DNA of 64,000 nt from an uncultured Bacteroidales bacterium (GCA_963800645.1 CAWDBX010000011.1:139503-203502); one strand, 5' to 3'; counted from the stretch's first letter, positions 22,524 through 38,537 are shown. The notes: generated by a model from the sequence alone, not told the origin. Numbers and translations: made by a program.

Positions 22524-22829
22524 ATGAATCGTGGTTGTTATAGGCACCCATAAAAATTTATTCCAACTGGCTGGTGATGGTTGGTGATGGCCGGTCGCCG
22601 TAATGTTATTCGAAACCATGGTATTCAGCTTGTTCCGGCAATCAAATATAGGACTTCCGGTGCAAAAATCAAAAGATTGAAAGATGAAAAGAATCAGGTC
22701 CCAGCACAAAAGGAATCCTGTGCTTTGTGGATCGTTGCAGGCCTGCATTATGAAAAGCAAGTCTTGCGTCAACATTTGAAGTTGAGCCGATATAGTACTT
22801 ATGCGAATTAAGAGTCAAAATTTTTCGTG

Positions 22830-22924
22830 AAACCCCGGTTACGGGGTTTAATATGAATAGCGCCGGGTGAAGCAACCCGGTGGTACATGCAGAAATGAAC
22901 ACCACAACCGCGTAGTGGTTGAAT
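22830..22924 (+). repeat. REP-like multi-hairpin unit (copy 1)
   Basis: AACCCCG..CGGGGTT, CCGGGT..ACCCGG and CAACCGCG..GGTTG hairpins; inverted counterpart at 23536-23648. Confidence 0.7.
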
Positions 22925-23535
22925 GTTTTAAGGCATGATTTCATATCTTTCGCTTGGATGCCAATGAGATGCCAGGATGCAAATGGATTACCATATGGAT
23001 TTGGTCAGAAACACCACCGTTACGGTATAAATGGCATTTCTTGTATTTATGAGTATCAGTAATGAATAATAATCAAAATATATTTCTGAAATGCTTTATA
23101 TACGGGGCTTTGCCCCGATCCCCACTGAATGCTGCAGTCTTGAAACAAAGAACGAAGCAAGAAAATTCAAGCCAACGCACGGCGCATTGAATCAGCGTCA
23201 CCACAATGTGTGCGGAGCAAAAAAACAAAAACCTTATTCAGACGGTTTGCCGTTCAAACGAAGGCGACAGCCGGAGTGCGTTCAAACCGTCAGTCTTCTT
23301 TGGTTACTTTCTGTGACGACAGAAAGTGACAGAAAAAAACTAGGAAAACAATTCAGTAACAGAAGAATTGTTCTTTGTGCATCATTCAAGATGCACATAC
23401 TTGTTCTTAAGGATACCCCAGATGTATTTATATAATTCCGGGTGGTTTTTGGCAGCTGAGTGTTTTTTCGTGGTTTTTCGCTGTAAAATGATTTAATAAA
23501 GGATTTGGGTATAGGTGTTCATATCGTATTTATTT

Positions 23536-23648
23536 ATTCAACCGCTGCCGCGGTTGTGAATTCCCATTGCCTGTTAACCACCGGGTTTTGCACCCGGCGC
23601 TATTCACTTTCAAGCCTGCCTTGCCGGTCAGGCAGGCACTCCGTGCTT
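23536..23648 (-). repeat. REP-like multi-hairpin unit (copy 2, inverted)
   Basis: Reverse complement shares TGAATAGCGCCGGGTG..AACCCGGTGG and CACAACCGCG..GGTTGAAT with 22830-22924. Confidence 0.7.
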
Positions 23649-23793
23649 GAGATTCAATAATCCAAATTTAATAAAGAATAATACTGGCAGCAATTCAACT
23701 CTTAATTCGCTTACATTTCGGTACTTTAGCGCTTTTTAGGATATAAACATAATACATACATTGCCGATAAAGCCGCATGAGCGGCAAGTTAAG

Positions 23794-23867
23794 TCGGGGT
23801 GGTGTGACTCGAACACACGACCTCCTGGTCCCAAACCAGGAACGCTAACCAACTGCGCTACACCCCG
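23794..23867 (-). tRNA. tRNA-Pro (UGG)
   Basis: CGGGGTG acceptor stem, CCTGG-TT-TGG-GA-CCAGG anticodon arm, GTTCGAGTC T-loop. Confidence 0.97.
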
Positions 23868-24067
23868 ATACAACAATATAAAGAACTCGACCGATCCAAA
23901 CCAGGAACCCCGCCTCTGGCGGGGCTACACCCCGATAAACAATATAAAGAACTCGACCGATCCAAACCAGGAACCCCGCCTCTGGCGGGGCTACACCCCG
24001 ATACAACAATATAAAGAACTCGACCGATCCAAACCAGGAACCCCGCCTCTGGCGGGGCTACACCCCG
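23868..24067 (-). repeat. Three tandem 66-67 bp repeats derived from the tRNA-Pro 5' half
   Basis: Units 23868-23934, 23935-24000 and 24001-24067 each contain CGGGGTGTAGC and GTTCCTGGTTTGG identical to the tRNA. Confidence 0.95.
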
Positions 24068-24083
24068 ACAATATAAAAAGAAC

Positions 24084-24434
24084 TTATGTCGAATAGGATC
24101 GTATCATTCCCAAAAGCATCTTGGAGATTTGTTCATAACTGTCGTAAAACTCCTTAAAGACTGCTTCTTCTATAAATCCCAAATCATTAACTGCTTCAAG
24201 GATCGCTACCGACTCGAAAACACTTCCCCGAGCAATGGTCAGATAATGCTTCTTATCGGTATTGGTCATTCTTCCGGTGCCCTCGGCCAGATTTAGCATG
24301 ATGCTTAAACTCGACCGTTTCCACTGATCTTTCAGATATGCGTCCAGTGTGGCATGGTTGAAAATAAATTTCAAGACTTTGGAATTATTCACTCTAATCA
24401 CCTGATATACATCAAGCTTCTCAAAATCAAACAT
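24084..24434 (-). CDS. Four-helix bundle protein (23S rRNA intervening-sequence protein family)
   Basis: FEKLDVYQ, DQWKRSSLSIMLNLAEG, IARGSVFE. Confidence 0.9.
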   Translation of the reverse strand: MFDFEKLDVYQVIRVNNSKVLKFIFNHATLDAYLKDQWKRSSLSIMLNLAEGTGRMTNTDKKHYLTIARGSVFESVAILEAVNDLGFIEEAVFKEFYDSYEQISKMLLGMIRSYST

Positions 24435-24745
24435 TTATTTCAATTATTTCTATATGAATTTTATTCCAAACACACGCTTATACGACCAAACCAATTTCAA
24501 TGAGCACTTCTTTTTTTCCGGTGCGAATATAATAATTTATCCTGACGATCAGTTATGTTTTTTAGCCGGTATCCAATTAACCGGTTCTTAAAATATGCAG
24601 CAATGCTTGTAAGTAACAATATTTAATATTATTAAGGATATTTTGATTAGTTTATTTTTTCTTATTGTCCATTTCGATAGGCATCTGAAGCTATGAATCG
24701 TTTCAGTGCCGCAGAATCTATGTTTCATTTAAATCTCAGTAAATT

Positions 24746-25306
24746 ATGAAAAGAGTACTTTTTCTTATTTTAACTATGGTATTGCTTCCCTTTGCCATTC
24801 ATGCGCAGCTTGGCATAGGAGTAGGCATCAAAGCCGGAGCAAATTTTGCCAATCAGGCTGTTGAAGATATCGATACCAAATCAGTGACCGACTATCATGT
24901 CGGGGCATATGTTAATTTAAATCTGTCTGAAAAATTCGGGATCACTCCTGAGGTGCTTTATACCGCATACGGAAGTGAATGGGAAGATTTAAAAGTTGAT
25001 TATGATTATATTGCCATACCTGTGATGGTAAGGTTCAAACCTATCAAACTGATTAGTCTGGAAGCAGGACCACAGTTCAGTTTTCTGACAAAAGCCGAGG
25101 TTGAAGGTATTGGCGATGTCAAGGATGATTTAAAGAATAACGATTTTGGTCTGGCTTTCGGAGCCGGTGTGCACCTGCCATTTGGAATCAATGCCGGTGC
25201 CAGGTATGTTCTTGGCTTCACCAATATCTCAGAGGTATCGGAAGTTGAGATTAAGAACCGTACGTTTCAGATCTATGTGGGGTGGACGATCCTGGGTGCA
25301 AAATAA
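24746..25306 (+). CDS. Outer-membrane beta-barrel (porin/PorT-like) protein
   Basis: Signal peptide, GIKAGANFA, YIAIPV, EAGPQFSFL, GARYVLG. Confidence 0.85.
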   Translation: MKRVLFLILTMVLLPFAIHAQLGIGVGIKAGANFANQAVEDIDTKSVTDYHVGAYVNLNLSEKFGITPEVLYTAYGSEWEDLKVDYDYIAIPVMVRFKPIKLISLEAGPQFSFLTKAEVEGIGDVKDDLKNNDFGLAFGAGVHLPFGINAGARYVLGFTNISEVSEVEIKNRTFQIYVGWTILGAK

Positions 25307-25352
25307 AACCTTTGCATTAAAACTGCTCCAGACTAGTCTGAAGGTGTCTTAT

Positions 25353-25386
25353 AAAAAAAACCTCACCAATGGGTGAGGTTTTTTTT
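25353..25386. terminator. Bidirectional terminator at the distal end of the cassette array
   Basis: A-run, ACCTCACC-AATG-GGTGAGGT stem-loop, T-run. Confidence 0.85.
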
Positions 25387-25561
25387 ATTTGGAATCGTGG
25401 AATTATGTGAGGTCCCGGCTCTGCAGGACCTCACCTGGAGCAATGACCCAGGTAAATTCACGGCCAGCAATGTGCACATGATGCTATGCTGCCATGCATT
25501 TGTTAATTTTGTCCATTTGGGATGCCATTATTAGGAAGTTCTGTTTACCTGGTTCGATAAA

Positions 25562-25756
25562 CTACTTATTATCCTTTTCTTTTAACCATTGGAAAAACCG
25601 GGTCAATGCAACACCCAATGACATTCCTAATGCCAAAATAAGCCAAAATCCAGCATGATTTGGTTTACTCTCAATTCTGGAATAAAAAACTAAAAAAAGG
25701 CTAATGGTAATTACCATTGGAAGCAATACGGTTGATAATCCTTTTCTCTTTGTCAT
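25562..25756 (-). CDS. Small two-TM hypothetical protein
   Basis: 64-aa ORF with two hydrophobic segments. Confidence 0.65.
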   Translation of the reverse strand: MTKRKGLSTVLLPMVITISLFLVFYSRIESKPNHAGFWLILALGMSLGVALTRFFQWLKEKDNK

Positions 25757-25905
25757 GATTTTTGCTTTTAATTATAGGTGTTTAGAAATCTAAGGCGTAT
25801 ATTCAAATGTATATACTCTGATTTCGTCATTCTTTGTTTTTGCGTGCAGTTCAAAACCCGGATGCCGCAATGGCTTAACCACACTGTTGAAATCCGTAAT
25901 GATCT

Positions 25906-26136
25906 TTAACCAAGTCTTACCAATAGAAAACAAAGTATTAGGACTGCTATAAATCCAATTACTTGATTCACAAGATTATGTCCCATCAAATCAAACAAAT
26001 CATCTGAGTTATCGGGTCCGTTTAAATATTCTCTGAAGGTAAATTTCTTTTTTCTGGCTATTGACCTCCAAATTGTTCCATAGGTCCATCTTACTATGGC
26101 ACCTGCAAAATTGAAAATATAACCACCAACGCCCAT
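25906..26136 (-). CDS. Small membrane hypothetical protein
   Basis: 76-aa ORF followed directly by an attC-like end (GCAATGGCTTAACCACACTGTTG at 25867-25889). Confidence 0.65.
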   Translation of the reverse strand: MGVGGYIFNFAGAIVRWTYGTIWRSIARKKKFTFREYLNGPDNSDDLFDLMGHNLVNQVIGFIAVLILCFLLVRLG

Positions 26137-26216
26137 ATAGCCTATTTAAGGAGTTGGATGATTAATCGAACCATAATCTGCCACGAATTATATGTTATAA
26201 CTAGCCAGGGTACCTT

Positions 26217-26315
26217 CATTCTTAATGGATTATACACGTCGCAGCTGTGCAGTCGTGCATTGAATAGAATATTTGCTTTGAGTTCGGTACAAGCGGTATG
26301 CACGTTGTTGTGGCC
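26217..26315. repeat. attC-like site (degenerate left arm)
   Basis: Ends in GTTGTGGCC just beyond the DJ-1 stop codon. Confidence 0.55.
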
Positions 26316-26323
26316 AGTGCCTA

Positions 26324-26908
26324 TTATTTTTTATTAAAACCCAGTAATTGACCAACCTTAACAGCATTATTCCTTGTTGTCAAAAGCTCCAGTAATAATA
26401 AGGCAACATCTACCGCTGTTGATGGATTCCAGGATGTAATCATATTATCATCCATTACAATAGGTTGATCTATCACATTAACGCCAAATCCTTGCAATGC
26501 TTCCCGGCGAATAGCTCTATGATATGTTGTTCCATTTTTGCCTTTTAAAACGCCGCTCTTTCCCAAAGGTAAAGCTCCAACACAAATAGATGCAATAATC
26601 TTATGTTTAGCTTTAAAACCTCGAATTAAATCAAGAAATCTATCCTCATAAGCATCATTATAAAATCCATACACCTCAAATCCACCAGGAATAGCTAATG
26701 CATCAAATGAGCCAATATCAACATCATCTATTAAATAGTCGACGATAAACCTTTGATTAAAAGAACTTTTAATTTCCTTTTTTAATCCGCAAGTAAATAA
26801 TTCTGTAGAACAATCACCTTCCACAAGATTCCAGCCAATCACATCAATAAATGCACTTGCTTCAAATGTTTCAAATCCATCCGCTAATAACAATAATACT
26901 TTTTTCAT
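26324..26908 (-). CDS. DJ-1/PfpI family protein
   Basis: LLLADGFETFE, DALAIPGG, ASICVGA nucleophile elbow. Confidence 0.92.
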   Translation of the reverse strand: MKKVLLLLADGFETFEASAFIDVIGWNLVEGDCSTELFTCGLKKEIKSSFNQRFIVDYLIDDVDIGSFDALAIPGGFEVYGFYNDAYEDRFLDLIRGFKAKHKIIASICVGALPLGKSGVLKGKNGTTYHRAIRREALQGFGVNVIDQPIVMDDNMITSWNPSTAVDVALLLLELLTTRNNAVKVGQLLGFNKK

Positions 26909-26950
26909 ATTAAATCAGATTATGTTCTTGCAACAATGTCGTTTTTAATG

Positions 26951-27082
26951 GGCCACAACCCTCGCATGGTTGACCCGGTTGCGTGGCAAATCAGATACCG
27001 TATCTGGCAGCACCGAGGCAACGCAAAGAGCTGGCATTCGCAAACAGTCAGCCGGCAATGGGTTATGCGCACTGTCAGCGGT
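26951..27082. repeat. attC-like hairpin site
   Basis: GGCCACAAC..CGCAT..TGACCC..TTGC pairs with GCAATGGGTTATGCG..GTCAGCGGT. Confidence 0.7.
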
Positions 27083-27093
27083 AGCCGTATTTT

Positions 27094-27879
27094 TTATTTA
27101 TTTGTAACAACTAAAATGCTGTTAATTATTTGGTCGTAAAGGTTTGCAGAAAGCTCGAGATATCTGTTGGTCGATACCTTATCTTTGTATTCTATTGCAT
27201 TCCAGGATCCTTCCAGACCAAAGCACCATGCTTTACTTGCACTGAAAATAAGTTGCTGTTCTGACAGGCTGAAGTTTTCCAGGGGTATAATGTCGTTATG
27301 GTAACAGTTGTCGATAGGATCCGAACCATAAAGATTATCCTGGGCTTTATTAAAAAAATCTGCCCAAAATTCATTTCCTTGTTTAGCTGCAAATTCAGCT
27401 ATATACCATAAAGCAGCGCCTAATTGCTTTTTAACTGTCTCAACTTCAAGACTCTTCCTAACAATTGGATGTTTTTTAAATTGTTGCCTGTAAATAACAT
27501 AAAAAAACTTTTCGCTTAATGAATACGGATAATAATAATATTTAGGTGTCCAATGTTTAATATGATCATTAAAAACAGTTTCAAGTCTCCAATCTCCTCC
27601 TCCACCGATTAACCCTTCCGAAAAATGATCCGGCTTAACAGCATTATTCTCGGTATGCATAAAGTGAGCACTTACTTTTAGACAGCCTTCAGTTTTTAGA
27701 TATTTAAACCATTCAACCGGATTATTGGCCACGTCTAATTTATTATGATCTATAAAAGAAACGGATTCACAATTTGCAAAGCATTTCTTATTAAAAAAAT
27801 CAGGGCAAAGCTTGTTGTTAATCAAATAATCATTTGCATAGGTAACTATGGATATTATTTGGGCCAATTTTTCATTCAT
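27094..27879 (-). CDS. Hypothetical protein (261 aa)
   Basis: Long ORF with AWCFGLEGSWN motif; family not assigned. Confidence 0.75.
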   Translation of the reverse strand: MNEKLAQIISIVTYANDYLINNKLCPDFFNKKCFANCESVSFIDHNKLDVANNPVEWFKYLKTEGCLKVSAHFMHTENNAVKPDHFSEGLIGGGGDWRLETVFNDHIKHWTPKYYYYPYSLSEKFFYVIYRQQFKKHPIVRKSLEVETVKKQLGAALWYIAEFAAKQGNEFWADFFNKAQDNLYGSDPIDNCYHNDIIPLENFSLSEQQLIFSASKAWCFGLEGSWNAIEYKDKVSTNRYLELSANLYDQIINSILVVTNK

Positions 27880-27912
27880 TCTGGCTGTAAATTTTCAGGA
27901 TTATTAATTATT

Positions 27913-28043
27913 GTTCCTTAAAGTCCGCGGGCATGAGCCCTTGCGATGCAATGATGATTACTTTTCCAGGTACAACAGGGTAACCCAAAGTACTTGCATC
28001 GCAAACAATAGACCAGCAATGGGTTAAACACATTGTTAGCAGT
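27913..28043. repeat. attC-like hairpin site
   Basis: Ends GCAATGGGTTAAACACATTGTTAGCAGT; internal perfect inverted repeat TTGCGATGCAA/TTGCATCGCAA. Confidence 0.7.
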
Positions 28044-28064
28044 TCGCTGCTGTTCGAGTCAATT

Positions 28065-28439
28065 TTAGTACATCCATTTTGCATCATTCTCTTGTACATC
28101 CTTAATTCTATAAGCTGCAATTTTATGGATAAGTGATTTTGGGAGTGGTTCATGGTAAGGAAATTGAATCGTGTCTTTACCTGTTGTAAACTTTTCCAAT
28201 TCTTCCCTGAATGGTTCCATAGCAGGACCAGTTGGCATAAAGTTTAAATGTGATTTATATGCTGCGTAGGAGAAAAGAATTCTTTTTTCCATAAACACAG
28301 GAATTCCCCACTTTAGCATCTCTGTAGCATTGGGGGCAACTTTTTTCAGAATGGAGCGAATTTCCCTTAATTTCTCCTTAGCATTTTCGGGAGCAGCATT
28401 TATATACTCTTCAACATCAGTTGGTTTTGTCTTGGTCAT
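28065..28439 (-). CDS. DUF1801 (YdhG-like) protein
   Basis: DVEEYI, LKWGIPVF, YAAYKSH, GKDTIQFPY..PLP. Confidence 0.88.
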   Translation of the reverse strand: MTKTKPTDVEEYINAAPENAKEKLREIRSILKKVAPNATEMLKWGIPVFMEKRILFSYAAYKSHLNFMPTGPAMEPFREELEKFTTGKDTIQFPYHEPLPKSLIHKIAAYRIKDVQENDAKWMY

Positions 28440-28444
28440 AAATT

Positions 28445-28819
28445 TCAAATTTTAATGAGGTCCTGTGGATGCTTTAAACTTCGTGAAAGGCCACCCCGGC
28501 AACAATGAAAACCTGAATCAGCAGTTTTCTCTACATATACTAACCAGAGCCCATTACTATTGCGAAAATCAATATCCTCCTCGAAAGTGTACTTTAAGCA
28601 TATAGTATCTAAACCATAATCTCCCTTAAATTTTTCAAATATTCTGAATGTAGCGGTCTCATCCGTTGAATCTACTGAAATGAGCTCTCCAAGGAATATT
28701 AAGTTGGATTTATCCATGCTGAATTCCTGCAAATCTTCGATTCTATCAAATGGTTCATTTGCATGAAGCAAGATGGGATTGACAATAAAAACTGAAATAT
28801 AAAAAACAATGCTTTTCAT
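28445..28819 (-). CDS. Secreted hypothetical protein, possibly truncated
   Basis: Signal-like N-terminus; runs into the DUF1801 start with no intervening site. Confidence 0.55.
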   Translation of the reverse strand: MKSIVFYISVFIVNPILLHANEPFDRIEDLQEFSMDKSNLIFLGELISVDSTDETATFRIFEKFKGDYGLDTICLKYTFEEDIDFRNSNGLWLVYVEKTADSGFHCCRGGLSRSLKHPQDLIKI

Positions 28820-28922
28820 GTGTAAGATTTTATGCCTGGCGCTGTTAGGTGCTGTTTTTTATTTTTCTGTTTGTAAAAGTTGTTTCGTTTTTTTTGAATT
28901 GTTTGGAAAATTTTGGTTCCCT

Positions 28923-29273
28923 TTACTTTCTTAAAATCTTCTCCATTGTCTTTCCTTTTGCCAATTCGTCAATCAGCTTATCTAAATAACGAATTTTTTG
29001 CATGAGTTTGTCTTCGATTTCTTCCACACGATAGCCACAAATTACACCGGTAATTTTTGAAACATTTTGATTCATTTGTGGTGCCTGTGTGAAAAAGGTC
29101 TCAAAATTATTGTTTTTATCAATTTGCTGCTGCAAGGATTGTTGATTGTATCCTGTGAGCCAACAAATGATGGCATCTACTTCTGCCTTTGTGCGTCCTT
29201 TTTTCTCCGCTTTTAGTATATATAACGGATAGACACTTGCAAATGATGTTGTATAAATTCTTGGTTTTTCCAT
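28923..29273 (-). CDS. DUF2200 family protein
   Basis: [57 protein letters not shown]. Confidence 0.9.
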
Positions 29274-29379
29274 AGTTCTTTATTTACTATAACAAATAAC
29301 AATTTAGTCAATCCATTTTCTGCAAAAAACTCCTGAAAATTGGCTGCTGGGTATTTTTTGTCTTACCTTATCTCAACCA

Positions 29380-29650
29380 ATTAGTCAATATAGTATCCCA
29401 ATTATCGCCATAAAAAAGCTTGCAATAAGATGAAATGCAAAAGCCGGTAATATACTTTTGCTTTTATATACTACAAATGCTTATGTAATACTCCCCACAA
29501 TTAAAACAGGAAATAACCAAAACTGAAATGTATGATATAATGCAAATAAAATAACCTTTGTTTTATTGTAATATTTTCAGTACAAAGCCTTTCAACAAAT
29601 GAAGTATTTAGTTTTTTCGATTCAAAATAATATAAACAAACGCCAATTTT
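29380..29650 (-). pseudogene. CPBP/CAAX-protease family remnant (C-terminal part)
   Basis: Minus-strand translation FALYHTFQFWLFPVLIVGSIT*AFVVYKSKSILPAFAFHLIAS with an internal stop. Confidence 0.6.
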
Positions 29651-29686
29651 TAATTTCTAATGAATCGATTAATGAAATTTTTTCAT

Positions 29687-29810
29687 GGTAGTCAATGGTC
29701 GGAGTAATGGCCAGTAAGGAACTACGGATGATTTCATACTGGATACTAAGAAAAGTTTAAGTGGTTAAAATCCTGCGAATACAGGTGAAGAAAAATATTT
29801 AGTTGTATAG
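29687..29810. repeat. attC-like site, near-duplicate of 30742-30872
   Basis: Shares GGCCAGT.AGGAAC.ACGGATGATTTC, GATACTAAGA, AGTGGTTAAAAT and TGCGAATACAGGTGAA. Confidence 0.7.
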
Positions 29811-30468
29811 TTGAAGTTCTAAGAGAAGGCATTAATCAGGAAGTTGTACGGTTATTCTCATAAATGATTTTACGAAGATTTGGCGAGTAGAGATGAAGTC
29901 TAAATAAAAGCATATTCAAGAAGATGCGAAGATGTAAGTTGAAATAATGAATTGAATATATAAAAAAAGGCATATAATCAGGAATTGTAATGGTTATTAT
30001 CAGTAAATGGTCTATATCTTTTCGGTCTTATACCTTTTTTTTCCAGGCTCCTACTGTTCTTTTTTCGCTTCTCCGCTCTCCTTCATGTATCATATAAGAT
30101 TGTTCGTCAGCTACTCGCCAACTTTAAGGTTTGAATAATCAAATTGAAGATGATAACTTTTCGCATTTTTTTTAATACTTAGTATTTCCTGATAATATTT
30201 CATTTTTTGGTTTGCGATTTTGCACCTTTTCACACTTTGGCAGTAGCCATTTAATGGTAGAATAACCTAACAATGAATATACTAATAACCTTATTCAGAT
30301 TTAGAATTTTTGTAATTTTATATAATAGCAGACTGTAATCCATAAACTATCACTGGTAAAAAATGACGTTAATGAACTATTCAGGTTTAAAAGAAAAAGA
30401 AACAGTCCTTTATGGAGTTGAGAATTGACATTTTACAGTTTCTGCTTCCGCTTCTCCAAAGATGGAAT

Positions 30469-30693
30469 TTAAATCGCAGCAAACACTCTGACATAATCAA
30501 TTATAACAAAGATCAATAGCATTACTGAAGCCACGAGTCCCCACATAAGTACCTTTGGATAACCATTATTTACCAGAAATGGTAATACAAATCTGAATCC
30601 GATAAAAGCAAATGAACTTGGCAAAAGAAATGCCAATAAAATCCTGAATATTGATAATTGCTTACTGTTGCTCCATTCAAACAAGGGTTTCAT
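30469..30693 (-). pseudogene. Truncated membrane protein, probably the N-terminus of a CPBP-family cassette gene
   Basis: 74-aa two-TM ORF; its upstream leader is duplicated at ~29650 ahead of the CPBP remnant. Confidence 0.5.
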
Positions 30694-30741
30694 GTTTTTT
30701 TAATTTCTAATGAATCGATTTTTTACTGAAATTATTTACAT

Positions 30742-30872
30742 GGCAGCCAATGGTAGGCGTTATAGGCCAGTTAGGAACCACGGATGATTTCGATACTAAG
30801 AGAAGTTGTAGTGGTTAAAATAGTGCGAATACAGGTGAAACACCCTGATAGGCTATTCTGCAGGTTGTACAC
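30742..30872. repeat. attC-like hairpin site
   Basis: GCAGCCAAT..ATAGGCCAGTTAGG pairs with CCTGATAGGCTAT..GTTGTACAC, 9 nt from the channel stop codon. Confidence 0.7.
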
Positions 30873-30881
30873 TGGCCTTAT

Positions 30882-31733
30882 TTAGTTCTTTTTTAAACTT
30901 TTAATTTCATTATTTAAATCATCTAATCGGGTAATAATATGCTTATAAAGCTCATCTGTATTCTTATCTTTATACTTAATCTCATTAAGTTCCTGAGATA
31001 ATTCTTTTTGGCTTTCTTCCATGCTATTCATGATTACACCAATAAATAGATTCATGATAATCATGGCTCCAATTAATATAAAACTTGCAAAATACAAAAA
31101 AGGCCATAACGATACTATCTGCTGATTTTCATTATTTATGGGCCCAAAAATATGCACATTCATAATATCGGTCCAACCTTCGAGCGTTAACACTTTGAAG
31201 AGGGTAACAAAAGTATGGTGCAAATCACCAAAATGCATTGGGTCTGTCTTTCCAAAAACAAATACACCTACAATTGCATAGACATAAAAAAGTATTCCAA
31301 TAAGCATTATTACATAACCCATTGATGGAATGCTTTTAAGCAATGCACTGATTATTAACTTTAATTTAGGAAAAACAGTTATCATTCGAAAAATTCGCAA
31401 AACCCTTAATATTCGAAAAACAGCAAAATAGTGAGTATCGTTGAATGGAATAAGACAAATAGCTACAATTATGAAATCAAAAACATTCCATGGGTCTGAA
31501 AAATAAATCCATGGTCGTTTGCCATTTGCAATTATTTTTAAGGCTATTTCAATAGTAAAACAGGTGATAATAAACTTGTCGATTGAAGACAGAACAACCT
31601 GATATTTTTTTGCCAGTCCGGGATATGTTTCTAACCCGATAATAACTGCAGATAGAAGGATAAGTGAAAAAAGAAAATAATTAAAGAATCTGCTATTTAC
31701 TATCTTTTTGACTATTTCTGAAAACCTGTTCAT
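30882..31733 (-). CDS. Bacterial voltage-gated sodium channel (BacNav-type ion transporter)
   Basis: WNVFDFIIV (S3), RILRVLRIFR (S4), TLEGW filter, NLFIGVI (S6), coiled-coil tail. Confidence 0.9.
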   Translation of the reverse strand: MNRFSEIVKKIVNSRFFNYFLFSLILLSAVIIGLETYPGLAKKYQVVLSSIDKFIITCFTIEIALKIIANGKRPWIYFSDPWNVFDFIIVAICLIPFNDTHYFAVFRILRVLRIFRMITVFPKLKLIISALLKSIPSMGYVIMLIGILFYVYAIVGVFVFGKTDPMHFGDLHHTFVTLFKVLTLEGWTDIMNVHIFGPINNENQQIVSLWPFLYFASFILIGAMIIMNLFIGVIMNSMEESQKELSQELNEIKYKDKNTDELYKHIITRLDDLNNEIKSLKKN

Positions 31734-32363
31734 GATTTTTTAATTTTTGAAAACATAATTTTCAGCATGGGCAACGAAGCAATAACAATAAAAATGAATA
31801 AAATATAAATTGAATATTTCATAACATCCGGATATGCTTTTCCAACATAGTAGCCTAAAGGCACCAATGTACAAACCCAGGTTATTGCGCCGAAAAGATT
31901 AAACAACAAGAACTTTTTAAATTTAAAATCAGTTGCCCCCGCAATCATTGGCACCAAAGTACGGATAACAGGCATAAAGCGACCTAAAATGAATGCCCAC
32001 ATTCCAAAACGGGTGTAAAAACTGCTTCCACGTTCAAGGTATTCTTTTTTAAAGAACCGGGACTTATTATCGGTAAACAGTTTTTCGCCTAACCATTTTC
32101 CTTTAAAATACCCGGTAAAATCACCCATAAACGATGCTATAACTAATAATATCAGAAGCAACGGCCAATGGCAATTCCAAATAATGGGTTCCACAGAACA
32201 TACCGGCTGCAAACAGTAAATAATCGCCGCCCGGCAAAACAAATCCAAGAAAAAACCCTGTTTCAATATAAACAATTGCCAAAATAAGAATCAAACCTCC
32301 ATATTCGATAATGTGATGGGCATCAAAAATAAATTTCCCAAAATTGCTTTCCAATAAAATCAT
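31730..32363 (-). CDS. DedA family protein (one indel)
   Basis: YIETGFFLGFVLPGGDYLLFAAG and GRFMPVIRTLVPMIAG in two frames. Confidence 0.88.
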
Positions 32364-32742
32364 ATCCTGCTTTATTTGTTTTTAAATTTAAATGAAATGA
32401 AAATGTTTCCCGAAATTATTGTGGCGATAAAAAAAGTGACCATTCGATGGGTATTTTATAAAAATCAATCAGAATCATTTTAATGCCGACAAAACCACCT
32501 GCTTCCCTTTTGATAAAATCTTCTGAGAAAAAGGCGATTTACTCAAACAACTGAATAGTTTTTTTCATAACTTAACGTGAAAAGGCATCTTAAATTTACC
32601 TCGACAACATAGAAAAATCAACTGATAATTATTCATGCAGTAAAAGAAAGAAGGGGATTTTATTGAAATTATTTAAAACAGCCTATTAATAATCAACCTA
32701 TTATTTTCCCAGGACACTATTTCTAACCAAAAACAACAAAGT

Positions 32743-33679
32743 ATGAAAACAAAAATTGCTTTGCTCTTGTCAGTAATTTTACTTACACTTTTTTCATGTA
32801 CGGAAAATAATCCGGAAGTACTCCTTCCTGTGGATGATAGTCCTATTTTCATGGATATCTCATCCTATTACAGCCCTGCGAATCTCAAGTCAACATTAAC
32901 TGGTGGGTTACCTGATAACATTGCTGTTCTCAAGGCCGAATACCTTACAACTGCTGAATCAGGTAAGATTGGACGTACCGTTTATTTTGTCAATGTAGGC
33001 AATAAGCAGCTCGATGCAGATTTTGTACCAGATCTTTCACTGGATGGTACTACTGATGTATCCTATTATATTGATGAAAACAGACCTTCATTGGACCTTC
33101 CCCTGGCATTGTCATCAGGTGCAATACAACAAGCCATGGAAACCTGGGATGGAATAACTTGCTCAGATTTAGGAATGTATCAGATTCCATATTCAAATGA
33201 AATAAATAGTGGGTTTATATCTTATTATATTCGGATATGGTGGGAGTCCTGACTATATTTCGGATGTAACTTTTTGTGGATGGATGCCTGCTGGTTTTTT
33301 CGACATCCTGGCTTCAGACGGAAGCACATATATTCTGGGTGTTACATTCACCCTTATATTCGTTGACGATGACGGAACGCCAACCGATTACGATAATAAC
33401 AAAAAGTATGATGTAGCCTGGCGCGAAATATACTTTAATGATAATTTTCTATGGAGAAATGGAGCGACTTATGATATAGAAACCGTTGCCCTTCACGAAG
33501 CCGGTCATGGCCTTAGCCAGGGCCACTTTGGAAAAGCCTTCCGCGATGCAGGTACAGGTTATTTGCATTTTAGCCCGCGTGCAGTTATGAATGCTGCTTA
33601 TTCAGGTATTCAGACAGAGATTACAAAAACGGACGAAGCCGGACATTGCAGTATTTGGGCAGATTGGCCTATACATTAA
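32743..33679 (+). CDS. Metzincin/matrixin-like metalloprotease lipoprotein (one indel)
   Basis: Lipobox LFSC; DIETVALHEAGHGLSQGH and Met-turn AVMNA. Confidence 0.8.
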
Positions 33680-33859
33680 ATTTTTCAAGCATACCAGTAC
33701 ATCCGGTTTTCCAAATACGAACTTTAATGGCACAAGTTTTTTGTGCCATTTTTTTCATATTTATTTTGACAATTGATTTATCAACAAAAATTGTTGGTTA
33801 TACCCTATTTAAACTCTTCCATTCCAAATTATCCTTTTGAGTATCACTCGTTCGAAATT

Positions 33860-34164
33860 ACTGCCAACGTTCGCGTGTATGCCGATCCAATTGTTTATTT
33901 CTTACCATTTTAAACGTTTCAATCGCAAGAGTACTTAAACTAAGGAGATCCAATGTAAATTTCATTAGGCATTATACCGGGAATCAGTATATTTTCTCCG
34001 GAATAAAGTGATTGCAAAAAGGTGTCACCTTTTAGGACGATCTTCTTTCAAATGCACTTACTTATCAAGGTACACCCGGGTAACCAAAAGTGATGACCCA
34101 AGCAAATCCTCTGCCAGCAACCTGCCTGCCGGCAGGCAGGTGGGTTATACATACTGTTAGTGAC
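33860..34164. repeat. Long attC-like site containing a 20-bp palindrome insertion
   Basis: ACTGCCAACGTTCGCGTGTATGCC ... GGGTTATACATACTGTTAGTGAC. Confidence 0.7.
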
Positions 34165-34174
34165 TTGCAGATTT

Positions 34175-34966
34175 TCAATTTATTAGCTTTAATTCTCTTA
34201 AAATATCTTTGGTTATCTCGTATCGCGCCTGACTCAACTTGTTAAAATCATTTGTCTTAAAATTCATGGCATAAAAATACGGTTTATCGCCTTTCTCCAG
34301 GTATCCAACTAACCACATGATGTAATCAGTCTCAGTCAACATTCCACCACCAGTTTTACCACTTAGTTTGAATGTGTCAGATTGCTCAAGCACTATCATT
34401 TTTTTTATTATGTCAACGGATTTTCTTGCTACGGGCAACTCGTAATGATAAAATCTTCTCAAAAAATCGACCTGTTGATTAGCGCTTATTCTAAATAATC
34501 CGGCTAACCAAAATCGTGAAGGAGGTCCAGTTAAGTTTTTATTCCCGTAATCAAATGCTTTTACATATTCGTAATATTTATCAATTCCAATTTGTTCTGC
34601 AAATCCTACAAATGCCCAAACGCACGAATTATTTATGGCTGTTCTTAATGTCTGATCTTGATTCCAGGTGCCATTTGGCCATTCGTGGCCATCCCATTTA
34701 ATGATCTGATTAGTATCTTTGATAATACCTTCTTCCAATGCTATCAATGAATTAGGAATTTTAAAAGTTGAAGCAGGAATGTATCCGGAATCGCATATAC
34801 TTGTATTATATTTCACAAATTCATTGTCTGATTGGTTGAATAATACAAAGCAACCCTCAACGCCATATCTGGCAAATTGTGATTTGAAATCCTTCTCTAT
34901 CACTCTTTGAGAGAATCCTATCTGAGAAATCAATACACCTGTAATGATGTGAAAAATCTGTTTCAT
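34175..34966 (-). CDS. Class D (OXA-type) beta-lactamase family protein
   Basis: PASTFK (SxxK), SCV (SxV), YGN, FWL and GKTG motifs with a signal peptide. Confidence 0.9.
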   Translation of the reverse strand: MKQIFHIITGVLISQIGFSQRVIEKDFKSQFARYGVEGCFVLFNQSDNEFVKYNTSICDSGYIPASTFKIPNSLIALEEGIIKDTNQIIKWDGHEWPNGTWNQDQTLRTAINNSCVWAFVGFAEQIGIDKYYEYVKAFDYGNKNLTGPPSRFWLAGLFRISANQQVDFLRRFYHYELPVARKSVDIIKKMIVLEQSDTFKLSGKTGGGMLTETDYIMWLVGYLEKGDKPYFYAMNFKTNDFNKLSQARYEITKDILRELKLIN

Positions 34967-35003
34967 TGTTGTTATCTGGTTGTAGGTGTTTTTTTTACAG
35001 CTT

Positions 35004-35135
35004 GTCACTATGTTTTCGCATGTGGCCAGTAAGGGATTGTGCGCTTTTTGCCTATCAAAACACCCGGAAATTGATTCGGGTGATGACCTACGAATACTTC
35101 TGAAATCTTTATTGGCTATACCGCTTGTTAGCTGT
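35004..35135. repeat. attC-like hairpin site
   Basis: TGTGGCCAGTAAGGGA pairs with TCTTTATTGGCTATA; ends GTTAGCTGT 11 nt from a stop codon. Confidence 0.72.
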
Positions 35136-35146
35136 AGCCCATTTTA

Positions 35147-35893
35147 TTAATAATTCAATTCTTTTCCTTTTAAATATGCGATTTCAAGATATTTTTTCCT
35201 TGTCTCAGGACTAACTGATAAAATCGAATGAAAATAAACATGGTCAACTTGTCCAATGCCCGGGTATTTCAGTCCCCAGTCGTCAATTAATTTTTCCATG
35301 GCATCTTTAAAACCTTTTTCCCTGTACACTTTTTCGTTAAAAAAAGCAGGATGCATGATAACCGCTTTTTTAATTTTAAGCAGAGGTATCCGCCCGTCAG
35401 GATCTCCCCGCCAGCCCTTGTCATTCAGCTTGTAGGCGAATCCATAAGTCAGGACTCTTTCCATCCAGCCTTTCAGCAACGCCGGAAAGTGCAGCCAGAA
35501 AACCTGCGTGATAAAAACCAGTACATCCGCTTCGGCCACTTTCTTTTGTTGCAATAAAACATCTTTTGGCTTTTGGGATTGGATCAGCTTGATGAGTTCA
35601 TCATCGGTTTTGTTTTTAATATACCATTTTGCAACGAGCCGCCTGACCGGTCCGCCGGCAAGTTTGATAATCGTGCCCCTCATGTCCATTTGCTGAAAAA
35701 TGTCTTTGGGAATATCTTTATCCACAAAGAATGCGAAATCCCTATCCTGAAAGACGGGGTTGAACTTTGTTTTGTACAAATCAACAATTTCATACTTATG
35801 TCCTGCTTCCTTAATGCCTCTTACAAAATTGTCAAGTACTGCTTTTGTAAAGGACAATGGATTCGGATGTGCGAAAATGATTAGTACTTTCAT
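35147..35893 (-). CDS. NAD(P)H-dependent oxidoreductase, flavodoxin-like fold
   Basis: IIFAHPNPLSFT, DLY..FNPV, FPALLKGWMERV. Confidence 0.9.
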   Translation of the reverse strand: MKVLIIFAHPNPLSFTKAVLDNFVRGIKEAGHKYEIVDLYKTKFNPVFQDRDFAFFVDKDIPKDIFQQMDMRGTIIKLAGGPVRRLVAKWYIKNKTDDELIKLIQSQKPKDVLLQQKKVAEADVLVFITQVFWLHFPALLKGWMERVLTYGFAYKLNDKGWRGDPDGRIPLLKIKKAVIMHPAFFNEKVYREKGFKDAMEKLIDDWGLKYPGIGQVDHVYFHSILSVSPETRKKYLEIAYLKGKELNY

Positions 35894-35904
35894 AGTTGTC
35901 ACTT

Positions 35905-36474
35905 TTAAAAGGTTATATATCTATTCACTCTTTTTATGTATTGTCTGTATTCTTCACCATATTGAGAACTTAAGAACTGCTCTTCCTTGATCATAATAAA
36001 ATGGTGGATGATCCATGTACCAATGAATGCCATGATATTTAAATAATGAGGATTGAAAAGACAGGACGAGAACAGGATGAATATAAATCCTAAATAGAAT
36101 GGATGCCGGCTTATCGAATAAATACCATTTGTCTGTAATTGGTGAGTTTCAGAAGAAGATAAACCGAAAACCAGATCTTTATTCAGCTTAATGGTAGAAA
36201 GAAATAGTATGACAGCTCCAATAATTAAAAAGACCAACGCAATTATGTCAATGAAATTACTGGGAACAAAAAGTCTCATAACAGTTACGTTTAGTCCTTT
36301 TAGAAGCAGAAATGTCAGGTTTATAAGTACCAGTGTTTTTGCGAGAAGAAAATAAAAAACTGGAACAGGGGGGCGTCCGAAAATTTGTTGTTTCTTGATG
36401 ATTGCTCTGCCAATAACGGCTGTTATCAACATAATTAACAACATTGAAATAATTAAAACCATTGTTGAAATCAT
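35905..36474 (-). CDS. Isoprenylcysteine carboxyl methyltransferase family membrane protein
   Basis: LQTNGIYSISRHPFYLG, EEQFL..YGEEY..Y..RV.RY. Confidence 0.88.
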   Translation of the reverse strand: MISTMVLIISMLLIMLITAVIGRAIIKKQQIFGRPPVPVFYFLLAKTLVLINLTFLLLKGLNVTVMRLFVPSNFIDIIALVFLIIGAVILFLSTIKLNKDLVFGLSSSETHQLQTNGIYSISRHPFYLGFIFILFSSCLFNPHYLNIMAFIGTWIIHHFIMIKEEQFLSSQYGEEYRQYIKRVNRYITF

Positions 36475-36545
36475 ATCGCTTTATTATTAATGTTTAACCT
36501 AAGTCATGTTCATTCTTCCTGAGTTACAGTGCTGGGTACAGTGCA

Positions 36546-37181
36546 TTATTCCTTTTTCATAACTACATAAGCCAATGGAAATCTACCTTCAATCTTCAAT
36601 GCTTTTTTAATAAGCAGGCCATTGTTTGTCAACATACTTTTAAAACTTTCTATACTCCACTTATTGACAATTCTAAATCCAAAAAAAACTCTGCCAACAA
36701 CATCAATAATCCTGCTTTTAATATTTTCTCCAACGCAAAATGTCGGGACTATAAAAACTCCACCATCTTTCATGACTCGCTTAGCCTCCTTTACAGGTTT
36801 CGCCGGATCATAAAGCAAGTGTAACAAGTTGGATGCTATTACTATATCGAAGCTTTTATCAGCGAAACTCAAATGATATGAATCTTGAATTTGAAAATCA
36901 ATATTCTTGATATTGGTTTCTTCTTGCTTTTGCTTTGCGATACGAATCATCTCTGGAGATAGATCTGTTGCAATAATCGATGATACTTTTGAGCAAATAG
37001 AAAAGGATATCATTCCAGTACCTGTTCCTATCTCAAGCACAATGTCATTTGCTTTAAGCTCCAAATCAATATTTTCAAGAATTGAGCTATAAGTTTTACA
37101 AAACATGTCATTTATGAAGGAATCATAATTGACTGCCAGTTTATCCCAAAGCTTCTTTTCCTTTTCCTGTCTATTATCCAT
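36546..37181 (-). CDS. Class I SAM-dependent methyltransferase
   Basis: VLEIGTGTG, DLSPEM, SFDIV. Confidence 0.9.
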   Translation of the reverse strand: MDNRQEKEKKLWDKLAVNYDSFINDMFCKTYSSILENIDLELKANDIVLEIGTGTGMISFSICSKVSSIIATDLSPEMIRIAKQKQEETNIKNIDFQIQDSYHLSFADKSFDIVIASNLLHLLYDPAKPVKEAKRVMKDGGVFIVPTFCVGENIKSRIIDVVGRVFFGFRIVNKWSIESFKSMLTNNGLLIKKALKIEGRFPLAYVVMKKE

Positions 37182-37214
37182 GTTACTAATGTATTTCTTG
37201 CAGTTTTTTTACAT

Positions 37215-37485
37215 TGTACCCAACGCCCGCGTGTAAATGCCGTTGCGCCTGCCTGCCTGCCGGCAGGTTGCCAATGTGATTACTTACCTGGATACACCCA
37301 GGCAACCAGGAGAACTGACCAACGTAACCGACTGAAGGGAGCTCGTGTAGCGAAGCGGAGTACCTGAAAAAGTCACTATGAATGAAAAAAATCGGACTCG
37401 CCCTTGTCCCCGCCGCTGGCGGGGCCGTTCGTGGACAACCTCCCCGCATGGCTGGCTTTGAATAAATTTGGTGCTTGTTATCGGG
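37215..37485. repeat. First (array-proximal) attC-like site, with palindrome insertions
   Basis: TGTACCCAACGCCCGCGTGTA.. left arm like 33860; internal TGACC motif; candidate right end GTTATCGGG. Confidence 0.6.
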
Positions 37486-38114
37486 GCTCATCCGGTTACT
37501 TTAAAAATCATTCACAACATACAAATAATCAGCATTTACCTAAAGAAGCACCTTTCTTAACATGATTCGATACTCCCCCTTGTGCTCAATTTTGCTGACA
37601 CTAACTTTTGATTTCATGACCAATTGCTTATTTCAATTCAAATGGGTGCGATAAACCCACCGCTATCCAATGACTTGATCATGAATGAATGGGTACATTT
37701 TTATAAACTTATTGCCACTGAACTTTTGAATGCCAGTTCTTTCATTAACTGCTATTACTTAAAAATAATTGAACAATCAAAAAATGTAATCTATCTGGGA
37801 GGAATTATGATCAGAGAATAAATAATAAAAGACGGCTTCGCCATGCTCACTCACAGCTAGTAAGAACCAATCATGCAAAAAAGCGATGCCATATCCTCTG
37901 TTTAAATAATCTGCATTCGGGCCACACGTTTTGCATCACCTAACTTCTGCTTTCCCTTATAAAAATAATAAAAAATCAGTTCGAAGTTTTTGCCGTCATG
38001 AAATAGTTAGCCCAATGTGAAAAACCGTTTGCTGGTTAAAAGATTTCCGGATGAATGCGGGTTGAAATGTTAACCAAAAACGAAATGTAAGGGCAGTTAA
38101 CGGGGATCGGACAT

Positions 38115-38537
<423 letters not shown>

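Follow-up and report, generated by a model that had tools for sequence, protein, structure and literature searches.

A 20-nt palindrome inserted without target duplication in an uncultured Bacteroidales genome and shared with other phyla and phages

Can a DNA unit of some twenty nucleotides be inserted, precisely and repeatedly, into other sequences? This question is raised by a stretch of 64,000 nucleotides (here called the window) from an uncultured Bacteroidales bacterium (GCA_963800645.1, CAWDBX010000011.1:139503-203502), in which the initial annotation had noticed ultra-short palindromes sitting inside other hairpins. The window corresponds to contig C11:139503-203502 of an assembly (G000) of 4.46 Mb in 15 contigs, with a GC content of 44.8% and a completeness of 72.5% based on marker genes. 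The unit in question is the 20-mer CCTGCCTGCCGGCAGGCAGG, a perfect palindrome composed of the units (CCTG)2-CCGG-(CAGG)2, which is named PAL hereafter. On many separate occasions, PAL has entered unrelated sequences as the exact 20-nt unit, without duplication or loss of target bases.

Insertion sites in the window

Three places in the window carry PAL or a variant of it (Table 1). The perfect copy at 34121-34140, for which a DNA hairpin of -8 kcal/mol was computed, lies in a motif that is uninterrupted at two sister sites, namely 27051-27065 (GCCGGCAATGGGTTA, with one mismatch) and 28012-28026 (ACCAGCAATGGGTTA). At 37248-37267, a variant with unequal arms interrupts a junction whose counterpart without insert, GGCAACGCAAC, is intact in 9 of the 12 aligned empty attC sites. 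The third insertion, an imperfect 22-nt variant at 23615-23636 (PAL'), separates GTG from CTT, in the minus-strand reading, of the hairpin AAGCACGGAGTGCTT, which lies in the end repeat of a Y1-transposase element. The hairpin that hosts PAL' spans 23612-23648. While the window copy of this element is filled with the 22-mer, the copies at C4:131864 and C6:274042 are empty, with AAGCACGGAGTGCTT intact; the former belongs to a paralogue that is 92% identical.

When filled and empty copies are read directly against each other, zero flanking bases are duplicated and zero are lost at all three sites. The three interruptions described by the initial annotation, including the statement that nothing is duplicated at 34121-34140, were thus confirmed. 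With at most one mismatch, the 12-base core of PAL has 2 matches in the window, compared to 0.09 expected from 100 shuffled sequences, none of which reached 2.

Filled and empty homologous sites

Homologous sites in both states were also found elsewhere. In a genome of the candidate phyla radiation (CPR, Patescibacteria; G730), two related repeats (L215 and L217) form a reciprocal pair, each being empty at the site where the other is filled and each insertion measuring exactly 20 nt. In L215, PAL lies between ATTCTGG and CTTGCCCAGAAT, while in L217 a PAL with one mismatch lies between TTTTCAAA and GTGTC. In the spacer at C8:141583, PAL is present only in G000 and at none of the 10 relatives' loci with both flanks aligned (11 were examined); as these relatives are ~72-81% identical and the spacer is hypervariable, this comparison is soft evidence.

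A further case is a Saccharibacteria FtsK gene (L072), where PAL falls within the FtsK_SpoIIIE domain and encodes LPAGRQ. The alignment of its 30 best relatives contains 4 proteins with LPAGRQ, 6 with a decayed form (e.g. LPRQQAG), 17 with a short form (e.g. ANGGKDEPLPY) and 3 with other inserts. In the DNA of L072, exactly 20 nt stand between GCCAA and CGGCGG, and deleting them restores the ..ANGG.. of the short form. As read from the sequence, an additional base a few codons later preserves the downstream frame. In a random sample of CPR genomes, PAL was found in 0 of 14 parsed FtsK loci (30 were fetched, the other 16 being unparsed and uncounted).

The paralogues in G000, the reciprocal CPR pair and the FtsK orthologues support the proposal of a unit of 20-22 nt, far smaller than a miniature inverted-repeat transposable element (MITE) and inserted precisely without duplication. 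Since filled and empty homologous sites exist, the idea of a mobile unit also survives the objections that the initial annotation had anticipated.

Copies within the genome

The genome-wide enumeration suggested at the outset gave 39 exact copies of the core CCTGCCGGCAGG in the 4.46-Mb assembly, 24 copies of the full 20-mer and none of the reversed pattern. A census of all perfect hairpins with 7-bp stems is headed by four PAL forms, which have 24-28 copies; the entries below them, of which TCCCGACAAGTCGGGA is the next, are constant parts of longer repeats. Outside attC sites PAL occurs in more than 20 unrelated contexts in G000, and outside the cassette arrays it lies in short intergenic spacers. 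In at least six spacers, a single simple repeat, e.g. (AATTCAT)n or (TTGTGATTG)n, borders PAL on both sides, and the heptamer or nonamer phase continues across PAL, indicating a clean 20-nt insertion.

The two arms are not always equal. Counted in units, the copies in G000 are 2+2 (24), 2+1 (5), 1+2 (5), 1+1 (3), 1+4 (1) and 3+1 (1), and several of the unequal copies are 2+2 copies with a point change. A longer parent element bounded by two arms was considered as well and rejected, as all paired arms within 6 kb of each other belonged to adjacent PAL copies.

Heptamer repeats such as (AATTCAT)n and (TAGTTGT)n make up spacers just upstream of start codons throughout the genus, and these spacers are hypervariable between species. 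Examples are C8:141550-141640 and C7:154080-154160, and the corresponding loci of relatives (L021-L031). For comparison, TAACTGA heptamer repeats in Beggiatoaceae, Cyanobacteria and Bacteroidetes are the subject of passages of PMC4679880.

Predicted attC sites as hosts

Two of the three hosts in the window are hairpins associated with cassette-like genes, for which a larger array in the same genome offers a reference. At C10:67-123 kb, ~50 minus-strand open reading frames (ORFs) are found, and a conserved imperfect inverted repeat of ~120 nt follows most of them. The consensus fold of 12 PAL-free sites (10 from C10 and 2 from the window) has 20 pairs, 7 of which show compensatory changes. In this fold, ..AAC pairs with GTT.., an asymmetric spacer stays unpaired and the variable centre measures ~90 nt. 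The L''/L' helix is formed by GCGTGTAT-AAGCC with GGCT-C-ATACACGC, one unpaired base lying inside. The PAL-free sites hence have the R''(..AAC)/R'(GTT..) boxes, the L''/L' helix, the unpaired spacer and the extrahelical bases of attC, and in the C10 array most of the co-oriented ORFs have such a site behind them, while the window likewise contains minus-strand cassettes of unrelated functions. The architecture of integron attC sites, and the free variation of their terminal part, are described in passages of PMC5027507. By sequence and predicted fold, the two host hairpins of the window are integron-type attC sites of integrase-less cassette arrays. The initial annotation had recognised neither these hosts nor the Y1-element end, nor the occurrence of PAL beyond this genome.

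No integron integrase (IntI) was found in the genome, a search with the TIGR02249 profile giving only Xer-like matches below the cut-off on C7 and C9. At the right end of the C10 array there is an AraC-family gene and no integrase. As this result comes from a genome that is 72.5% complete, the arrays are filed as integrase-less cassette arrays.

A motif search caught 33 attC-like sites in the C10 array, 21 with PAL or a decayed PAL and 12 without. At position i, between GCCA and TTGCTGG, PAL or its decayed form is present in 6 of the 33 sites. Position iii, between GGCAA and CGCAAC, is occupied in 3, in one of which the arms are split by a further 20 nt. Three sites have PAL as a bare apex between L'' and L', and 9 lack the entire centre and read GCCA-PAL-CGCAAC. 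The last group combines the left junction of position i with the right junction of position iii, and these sites look like deletions between PAL copies at the two attC insertion points. No site among the 33 carries PAL at both positions i and iii.

These repeated configurations raise the question whether PAL is immobile, a fixed part of longer repeats (attC, or ends resembling repetitive extragenic palindromic (REP) sequences) that spread by duplication and gene conversion. Nine attC sites of G000 share the identical block GCCA-PAL-CGCAACGGCT-TCCCGACAAGTCGGGA, the 22-nt variant stands at one constant place in 5 copies of one repeat, and the second commonest hairpin, TCCCGACAAGTCGGGA, has the attC L' arm as its only context in all 16 copies. 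PAL, however, occupies at least three different attC points in addition to its many contexts outside attC, the 83 copies from other genomes and the viral copies have unrelated flanks with few families excepted, and filled and empty paralogues and orthologues exist. As a full explanation, an immobile PAL is contradicted by these data and very improbable; it holds only for secondary spread inside families.

Table 1. Positions of PAL copies, their hosts and further features of the window. The label attC denotes predicted sites.
Feature	Position	Strand	Description
PAL, CCTGCCTGCCGGCAGGCAGG	34121-34140		In truncated attC, between L'' (..GGGTTA/TAACCCA) and central region; flanks GCCAGCAA / TGGGTTA
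PAL variant, CCTGCCTGCCTGCCGGCAGG	37248-37267		3+1 units; in partial attC, between GGCAA and CGCAAC (minus-strand reading); flanks CCGTTGCG / TTGCCAATG
PAL', CCTGCCTTGCCGGTCAGGCAGG (minus strand CCTGCCTGACCGGCAAGGCAGG)	23615-23636		Imperfect 22-nt variant, between AAG and CACTCCGTGCTT
Truncated attC	34045-34164	-	3' of class D beta-lactamase-like cassette; R''-L''-PAL-central region; without L'-R'
Partial attC	37220-37366	-	Long central region-PAL-L'(CGCAACGGCATTTACACGC)-R'(GGGCGTTGG); without R''-L''; same type as C10:98677 and C10:108768
Complete attC	27916-28041	-	Without PAL; empty sister site
Complete attC	26955-27089	-	Without PAL; more diverged; empty sister site
Cassette-like genes	26324-37181	mostly -	DJ-1/PfpI, DUF1801, DUF2200, ion channel, VTT/DedA, class D beta-lactamase-like, flavodoxin-like, ICMT/PEMT methyltransferase, SAM methyltransferase
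Decayed ~1.2-kb element	22801-23710		Y1_Tnp pseudogene between inverted REP-like ends; 92% identical to C4:131782-132994, with two internal deletions
Small GIY-YIG nuclease pseudogene	22618-22944	-	2 in-frame TGA stops; abuts the Y1 element
Three tandem 66-67 nt copies of tRNA-Pro 5' half	23857-24071	-	D-arm replaced by CCCCGCCAGAGGCGGGG (CCCCGCC-N3-GGCGGGG)
Short repeat	37385-37455	-	CCCCGCC-N3-GGCGGGG hairpin and T-run; second copy at C10:~102100-102200

Genes, tRNAs and hairpins interrupted by PAL

The flanks of the 83 copies from other genomes are mutually unrelated, a few families excepted. Open frames of at least 200 aa run through 18.8% of 85 insertion sites, compared to 71.2% of random positions. 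As read from its sequence, PAL has no stop codon in any frame, and in-frame copies were found in genes for FtsK, a GDP-mannose/dTDP-glucose dehydratase-type protein, a PMT_2 glycosyltransferase and HsdS, in the last just before an inserted GIY-YIG domain. In the dehydratase-type gene, PAL is nested in an older PAL-like copy. Copies in genes persist as an LPAGRQ insert where a frameshift close by has compensated for them.

The stable GC hairpin and the mostly intergenic position would suit a functional motif, such as a protein-binding site or a terminator, that evolved repeatedly; an assembly or adapter artefact might be suspected as well. Identity over 20 bases across phyla is, however, beyond convergence, and copies inside FtsK and the sugar dehydratase, with decayed versions in orthologues, fit neither a motif of this kind nor an artefact. 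Cultured isolates have PAL too, as do independent metagenome assemblies of the window locus, and its flanks are contiguous and non-chimeric. Being contradicted by the copies in genes, isolates and independent assemblies, a recurrent motif or an artefact is the least credible explanation of all.

Transfer RNA genes are also hit. At L096 and L211, where duplicated tRNA 5' halves stand ahead of small GIY-YIG genes, PAL occupies the D-arm, and at L074 it lies in a tRNA 5' fragment without a GIY-YIG gene. In a phage tRNA-Met (L204), it forms a long variable arm, and ARAGORN still calls a tRNA. Self-nesting one base from the palindrome centre was observed in two loci (L077, L101), in L080 PAL is nested in a decayed PAL-like copy, and four further copies lie at the loop edges of other hairpins (L078, L126, L138, L069). 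Flanking inverted repeats of at least 7 nt were found around 13 of 83 copies and 7.1% of 4673 random positions, and those of at least 8 nt around 8.4% and 2.3%, respectively, the random positions including coding DNA, which is poorer in hairpins.

Distribution across genomes and viruses

The exact 20-mer is present in 13 of 24 other species of the genus (0-76 copies), in 2 of 16 genomes from other families of the order, in 35 of 400 sampled genomes of the phylum and in 60 of 300 sampled CPR genomes, the maximum there being 24 copies in 1.2 Mb. The CPR sample was drawn from the phylum of a WWE3 genome, and both its tally and that of FtsK include genome G608 (no PAL, one FtsK match). A reversed control pattern gave 0 matches in all 41, 401 and 301 genomes scanned. 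In addition, at least 120 stretches of a species-genome collection and 35 viral-contig stretches contain the exact 20-mer; by our own arithmetic, ~0.5 matches would be expected by chance in 596 Gb of uniform base composition.

Among the matches listed are Patescibacteria lineages, Omnitrophota, Bacteroidota, Planctomycetes, Bdellovibrionales, Gamma- and Deltaproteobacteria, Thermodesulfovibrio and Chloroflexi. Cultured strains with the 20-mer belong to Winogradskyella, Flagellimonas, Flavivirga and Longitalea, and Longitalea luteola has 44 cores. One IMG/VR contig of 29.5 kb (L200, L207, L208) carries at least six PAL copies, some of them inside inverted copies of a local repeat. In another genome (L032, G004:C1:12680-15699), a PAL copy delimits each 101-nt unit of a tandem array.

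No description of PAL was found in the searchable literature, either by sequence or by subject words, supplements lying outside this search. The 12-mer core gave only zebrafish papers, the listed matches to the 10-mer arm were unrelated and LPAGRQ gave none. The main text of a survey of hairpins in 118,019 genomes contains no match to either PAL arm.

Candidate mechanisms

With slightly better than even confidence, we consider PAL to be a real, ultra-small, non-autonomous insertion element that is moved as a hairpin by a trans-acting enzyme. PAL would move as a self-folding single-stranded hairpin, which the enzyme would join into single-stranded or nicked DNA. The leading candidate for this enzyme would be a Y1 (HUH) strand-transferase of the kind of IS200 or the REP-associated tyrosine transposases (RAYTs), followed by a structure-specific GIY-YIG nuclease. 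Later spread inside repeat families might occur by recombination, and PAL may persist because a GC hairpin at an attC apex, in a spacer or in a surface loop would be nearly neutral. A bolder claim goes further and is put forward tentatively, as it seems to us somewhat likelier to fall than to stand. In that case, PAL would be the smallest piece of mobile DNA on record, a hairpin parasite of 20 bases identical in at least 10 bacterial phyla and in phages, with a mechanism outside the described transposition pathways (candidates being a structure-specific nuclease/ligase or a Y1 enzyme acting on the bare hairpin), which reshapes integron sites, tRNAs and essential proteins, as illustrated by LPAGRQ in FtsK.

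The initial annotation had named GIY-YIG and HUH nucleases as candidate movers, and both retain weak statistical hints. No gene is linked to PAL in cis, the largest common neighbour family occurring at 4 of 96 bacterial loci. At viral loci, shared neighbour families span up to 7 contigs; we take these to be ordinary phage genes of related phages. No transposase family in G000 has more than 2 copies at 80% identity, in an assembly in which repeats may hide some. At 4 of ~12 CPR loci, a Y1 gene is located 1-1.5 kb from PAL, which never flanks it. A small GIY-YIG gene is located within ~100 nt of PAL at 3 of the 96 loci (L096, L069, L119), at the viral locus L211 and at 3 of the 46 CPR copies listed, which by our own estimates compares to ~0.2% at random and exceeds chance only a few-fold when both are confined to intergenic DNA.

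Side by side with PAL, a tyrosine recombinase gene and a Y1-like gene of 210-250 aa were seen at two loci, L215 (G730) and L226 (G637). The Y1-like gene is present in G730 in 8 diverged copies.

The hint in favour of Y1 is that Y1_Tnp was detected in 8 of 10 PAL-rich (at least 5 copies) and 3 of 10 PAL-free CPR genomes of similar size, in a comparison that is small and hand-picked from one list. Several observations weigh against an enzyme that moves the hairpin in trans. Within the genus, Y1_Tnp is present in 32 of 35 genomes regardless of PAL count, two genomes without PAL (G001 and G013) having 2 and 7 Y1 matches. PAL is absent within 700 nt of all 4 Y1 matches in G000, and no Y1 match was obtained in the most PAL-rich CPR genome (G718, 24 copies). 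GIY-YIG genes, in turn, are common in PAL-free CPR genomes too. The hairpin preference of PAL is modest and the majority of copies lie outside any detectable hairpin; from the claim that structured single-stranded DNA is targeted, the modest excess of flanking inverted repeats described above is what remains. No conserved target tetranucleotide stands beside PAL in the flanks from G000 or other genomes. Immediately 5' of the junction, 45 of the 78 flanks in G000 have A and 25 have G, although many of the flanks come from related repeats; flanks in other genomes vary. Nor was the polymorphism expected at read level encountered, as no 20-nt gain or loss at PAL occurs among the matches listed from four metagenome runs (X1, X2, X3 and X9) over window positions 23000-38500. 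Runs listed as matching hold at most 0.44 of the sampled words. The sequences in the four runs are contigs that mostly end at attC sites. The nearest sister species are only ~78% identical in DNA, so that comparison with them does not reach recent movement. Finally, the unequal arms (3+1, 4+1) are unexplained by simple hairpin transposition.

Some of these points would be expected if no dedicated enzyme existed. A free hairpin oligonucleotide, either DNA or an RNA that is trimmed at the foot of the hairpin and copied back, might be ligated or templated into nicks, or stalled replication forks might switch template onto PAL and back, with phages and cassettes carrying it between phyla. The lack of a linked gene in 96 loci and of a target consensus agrees with this, as do the copies in viral contigs and in CPR genomes of 0.5-1.2 Mb, including G718 with its 24 copies and no Y1 match. 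Simple repeats, loop edges and the centres of older PAL copies, in which PAL is enriched, are moreover places of fork stalling. Template switching, however, needs microhomology, and the junctions show none. The identical exact boundaries at every event point to recognition of the unit, and the range of 0-76 copies among congeners suggests a factor that is present in some genomes only. Enzyme-free copying is thus, in our opinion, a rather unlikely explanation, though one to be taken seriously.

The unequal arms lead to another possibility, namely that PAL is built at double-strand breaks, where an enzyme would add (CCTG)n tails to both 3' ends, followed by annealing at CCGG and fill-in. As the arms may then differ in units, tail addition would explain the unequal arms, which consist of whole CCTG/CAGG units whose numbers differ independently at some sites in G000, and it fits targets without duplication or loss. 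On the other hand, a point change in a 2+2 copy accounts for several of the 2+1 and 1+2 cases, the 96 loci show no polymerase or reverse transcriptase linked to PAL, and a clean blunt break without resection at every site is unlikely. The model comes from reasoning alone and we regard it as improbable. The mechanisms are accordingly ranked with Y1-type strand transfer first, enzyme-free replication or repair second and tail addition at breaks third.

Comparison with known systems

Among small repeats, the small dispersed repeats (SDRs) of heterocystous cyanobacteria, reportedly described by Elhai et al. in 2008 (Genome Res 18:1484), are said to be dispersed repeats of 21-27 nt that are thought to be mobile, are nested, occur near heptamer repeats and have no known mover. 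To our knowledge, SDRs are confined to one cyanobacterial group. PAL resembles them in being ~20-27 nt long, dispersed, nested and present or absent at homologous sites. Compared by description, it differs in being a perfect 20-nt palindrome that is identical across phyla and phages and occurs in-frame in genes.

REPs are imperfect and species-specific, flank a RAYT gene and have a conserved 5' tetranucleotide. Like REPs and REPINs (REP doublets forming hairpins), PAL is a short, hairpin-forming, non-autonomous palindrome, and the REP-like system of G000 itself hosts the 22-nt variant. Unlike them, PAL is perfect, shared across phyla and viruses, found in genes and not flanking Y1, and it is therefore not a REP-RAYT system. 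According to passages of PMC3116915 and PMC8266576, REPs and REPINs are short extragenic palindromes that form single-strand hairpins and are non-autonomous, Y1 HUH enzymes (RAYTs) being presumed to mobilise them in trans; SDRs are cited in passages of PMC3116915 and PMC2884548. The cyanobacterial SDRs and the REP/REPINs are the closest precedents of PAL.

Other elements are more distant. Some mobile elements, such as IS1111-attC and group IIC-attC introns, home to attC. PAL likewise occupies the variable terminal part of attC, but it is a non-coding 20-mer without attC specificity, most copies in other genomes lying outside attC-like flanks. MITEs measure 50-500 nt and generate target duplications; PAL is similarly non-autonomous, hairpin-forming and dispersed, but lacks the duplication and hence is no MITE. 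IS200/IS605 types enter single-stranded DNA 3' of a fixed tetra- or pentanucleotide and leave no duplication. PAL shares the lack of duplication, but no fixed target word is seen beside it. Rickettsia palindromic elements, of ~100-150 nt and found in one genus, form in-frame peptide inserts in protein genes. PAL resembles them as palindromic DNA that is kept in genes, but its 20 nt are not a multiple of three and need a compensating shift.

If PAL is mobile, it would set a new lower size limit for selfish DNA, and a single element would be crossing phylum boundaries, even into tiny CPR genomes where transposons are scarce. PAL offers a handle on how very short palindromic repeats spread, as cultured hosts, phages and 1-Mb genomes with few candidate genes all allow it to be traced. 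For integrons, it remodels the variable attC centre, which seems deleted in 9 sites of one array, and may alter cassette recombination. Being free of stop codons, PAL is also a natural source of seven-residue protein inserts.

Other repeats and genes

The end repeat of the Y1 element in the window consists of the hairpin followed by TGAATAGCGCCGGG... and is present in at least 20 copies in G000, often as inverted doublets ~160 nt apart. Two REP/REPIN-like systems were seen in this genome: the TGAATAGCGCCGGG repeat with its Y1 pseudogene (C4:131782-132994), and a cluster of different repeats at C15:48900-54100, within which a 196-aa Y1-like gene is located at C15:49560.

The initial annotation had further counted CCCGCC-N3-GGCGGG hairpins among the inserted palindromes. 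Their replacement of the D-arm in the tRNA-half repeats and their recurrence at ~37406-37424 were verified, but their membership in the PAL family was rejected. They are constant parts of the tRNA-half unit and of a terminator-bearing repeat, respectively, and have only a loose pattern in common with CCTGCC...GGCAGG. The tandem 5'-half copies adjoin a tRNA-Pro at 23793-23867. The repeat with the second hairpin may be a small RNA or a terminator module; the palindrome CCCAGCCTGCCGGCTGGCAGGG lies 3' of it in the C10 copy and in one metagenome contig.

At C10:342800-345100, six tandem units of 349 nt each consist of a tRNA-like piece and a small GIY-YIG gene, and the layout of a tRNA half and a GIY-YIG gene recurs in a WWE3 genome (L096) and in a viral contig (L211). 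The hairpin TCCCGACAAGTCGGGA of the attC L' arm (e.g. C10:112865) equals the anticodon-arm hairpin of the tRNA-like units at C10:343-345 kb (e.g. C10:343047) minus TGAC.

With regard to the genes, two plus-strand ORFs at 32743-33679 have no family match. The cassette gene at 34175-35008 (minus strand) matches Transpeptidase (PF00905) and contains an S-T-F-K motif, making it class D beta-lactamase-like and placing such a gene inside an environmental cassette array. Some intergenic stretches of C10:67000-123000 (loci L005-L007) hold small paired ORFs that may be toxin-antitoxin cassettes, judging from their resemblance to these.

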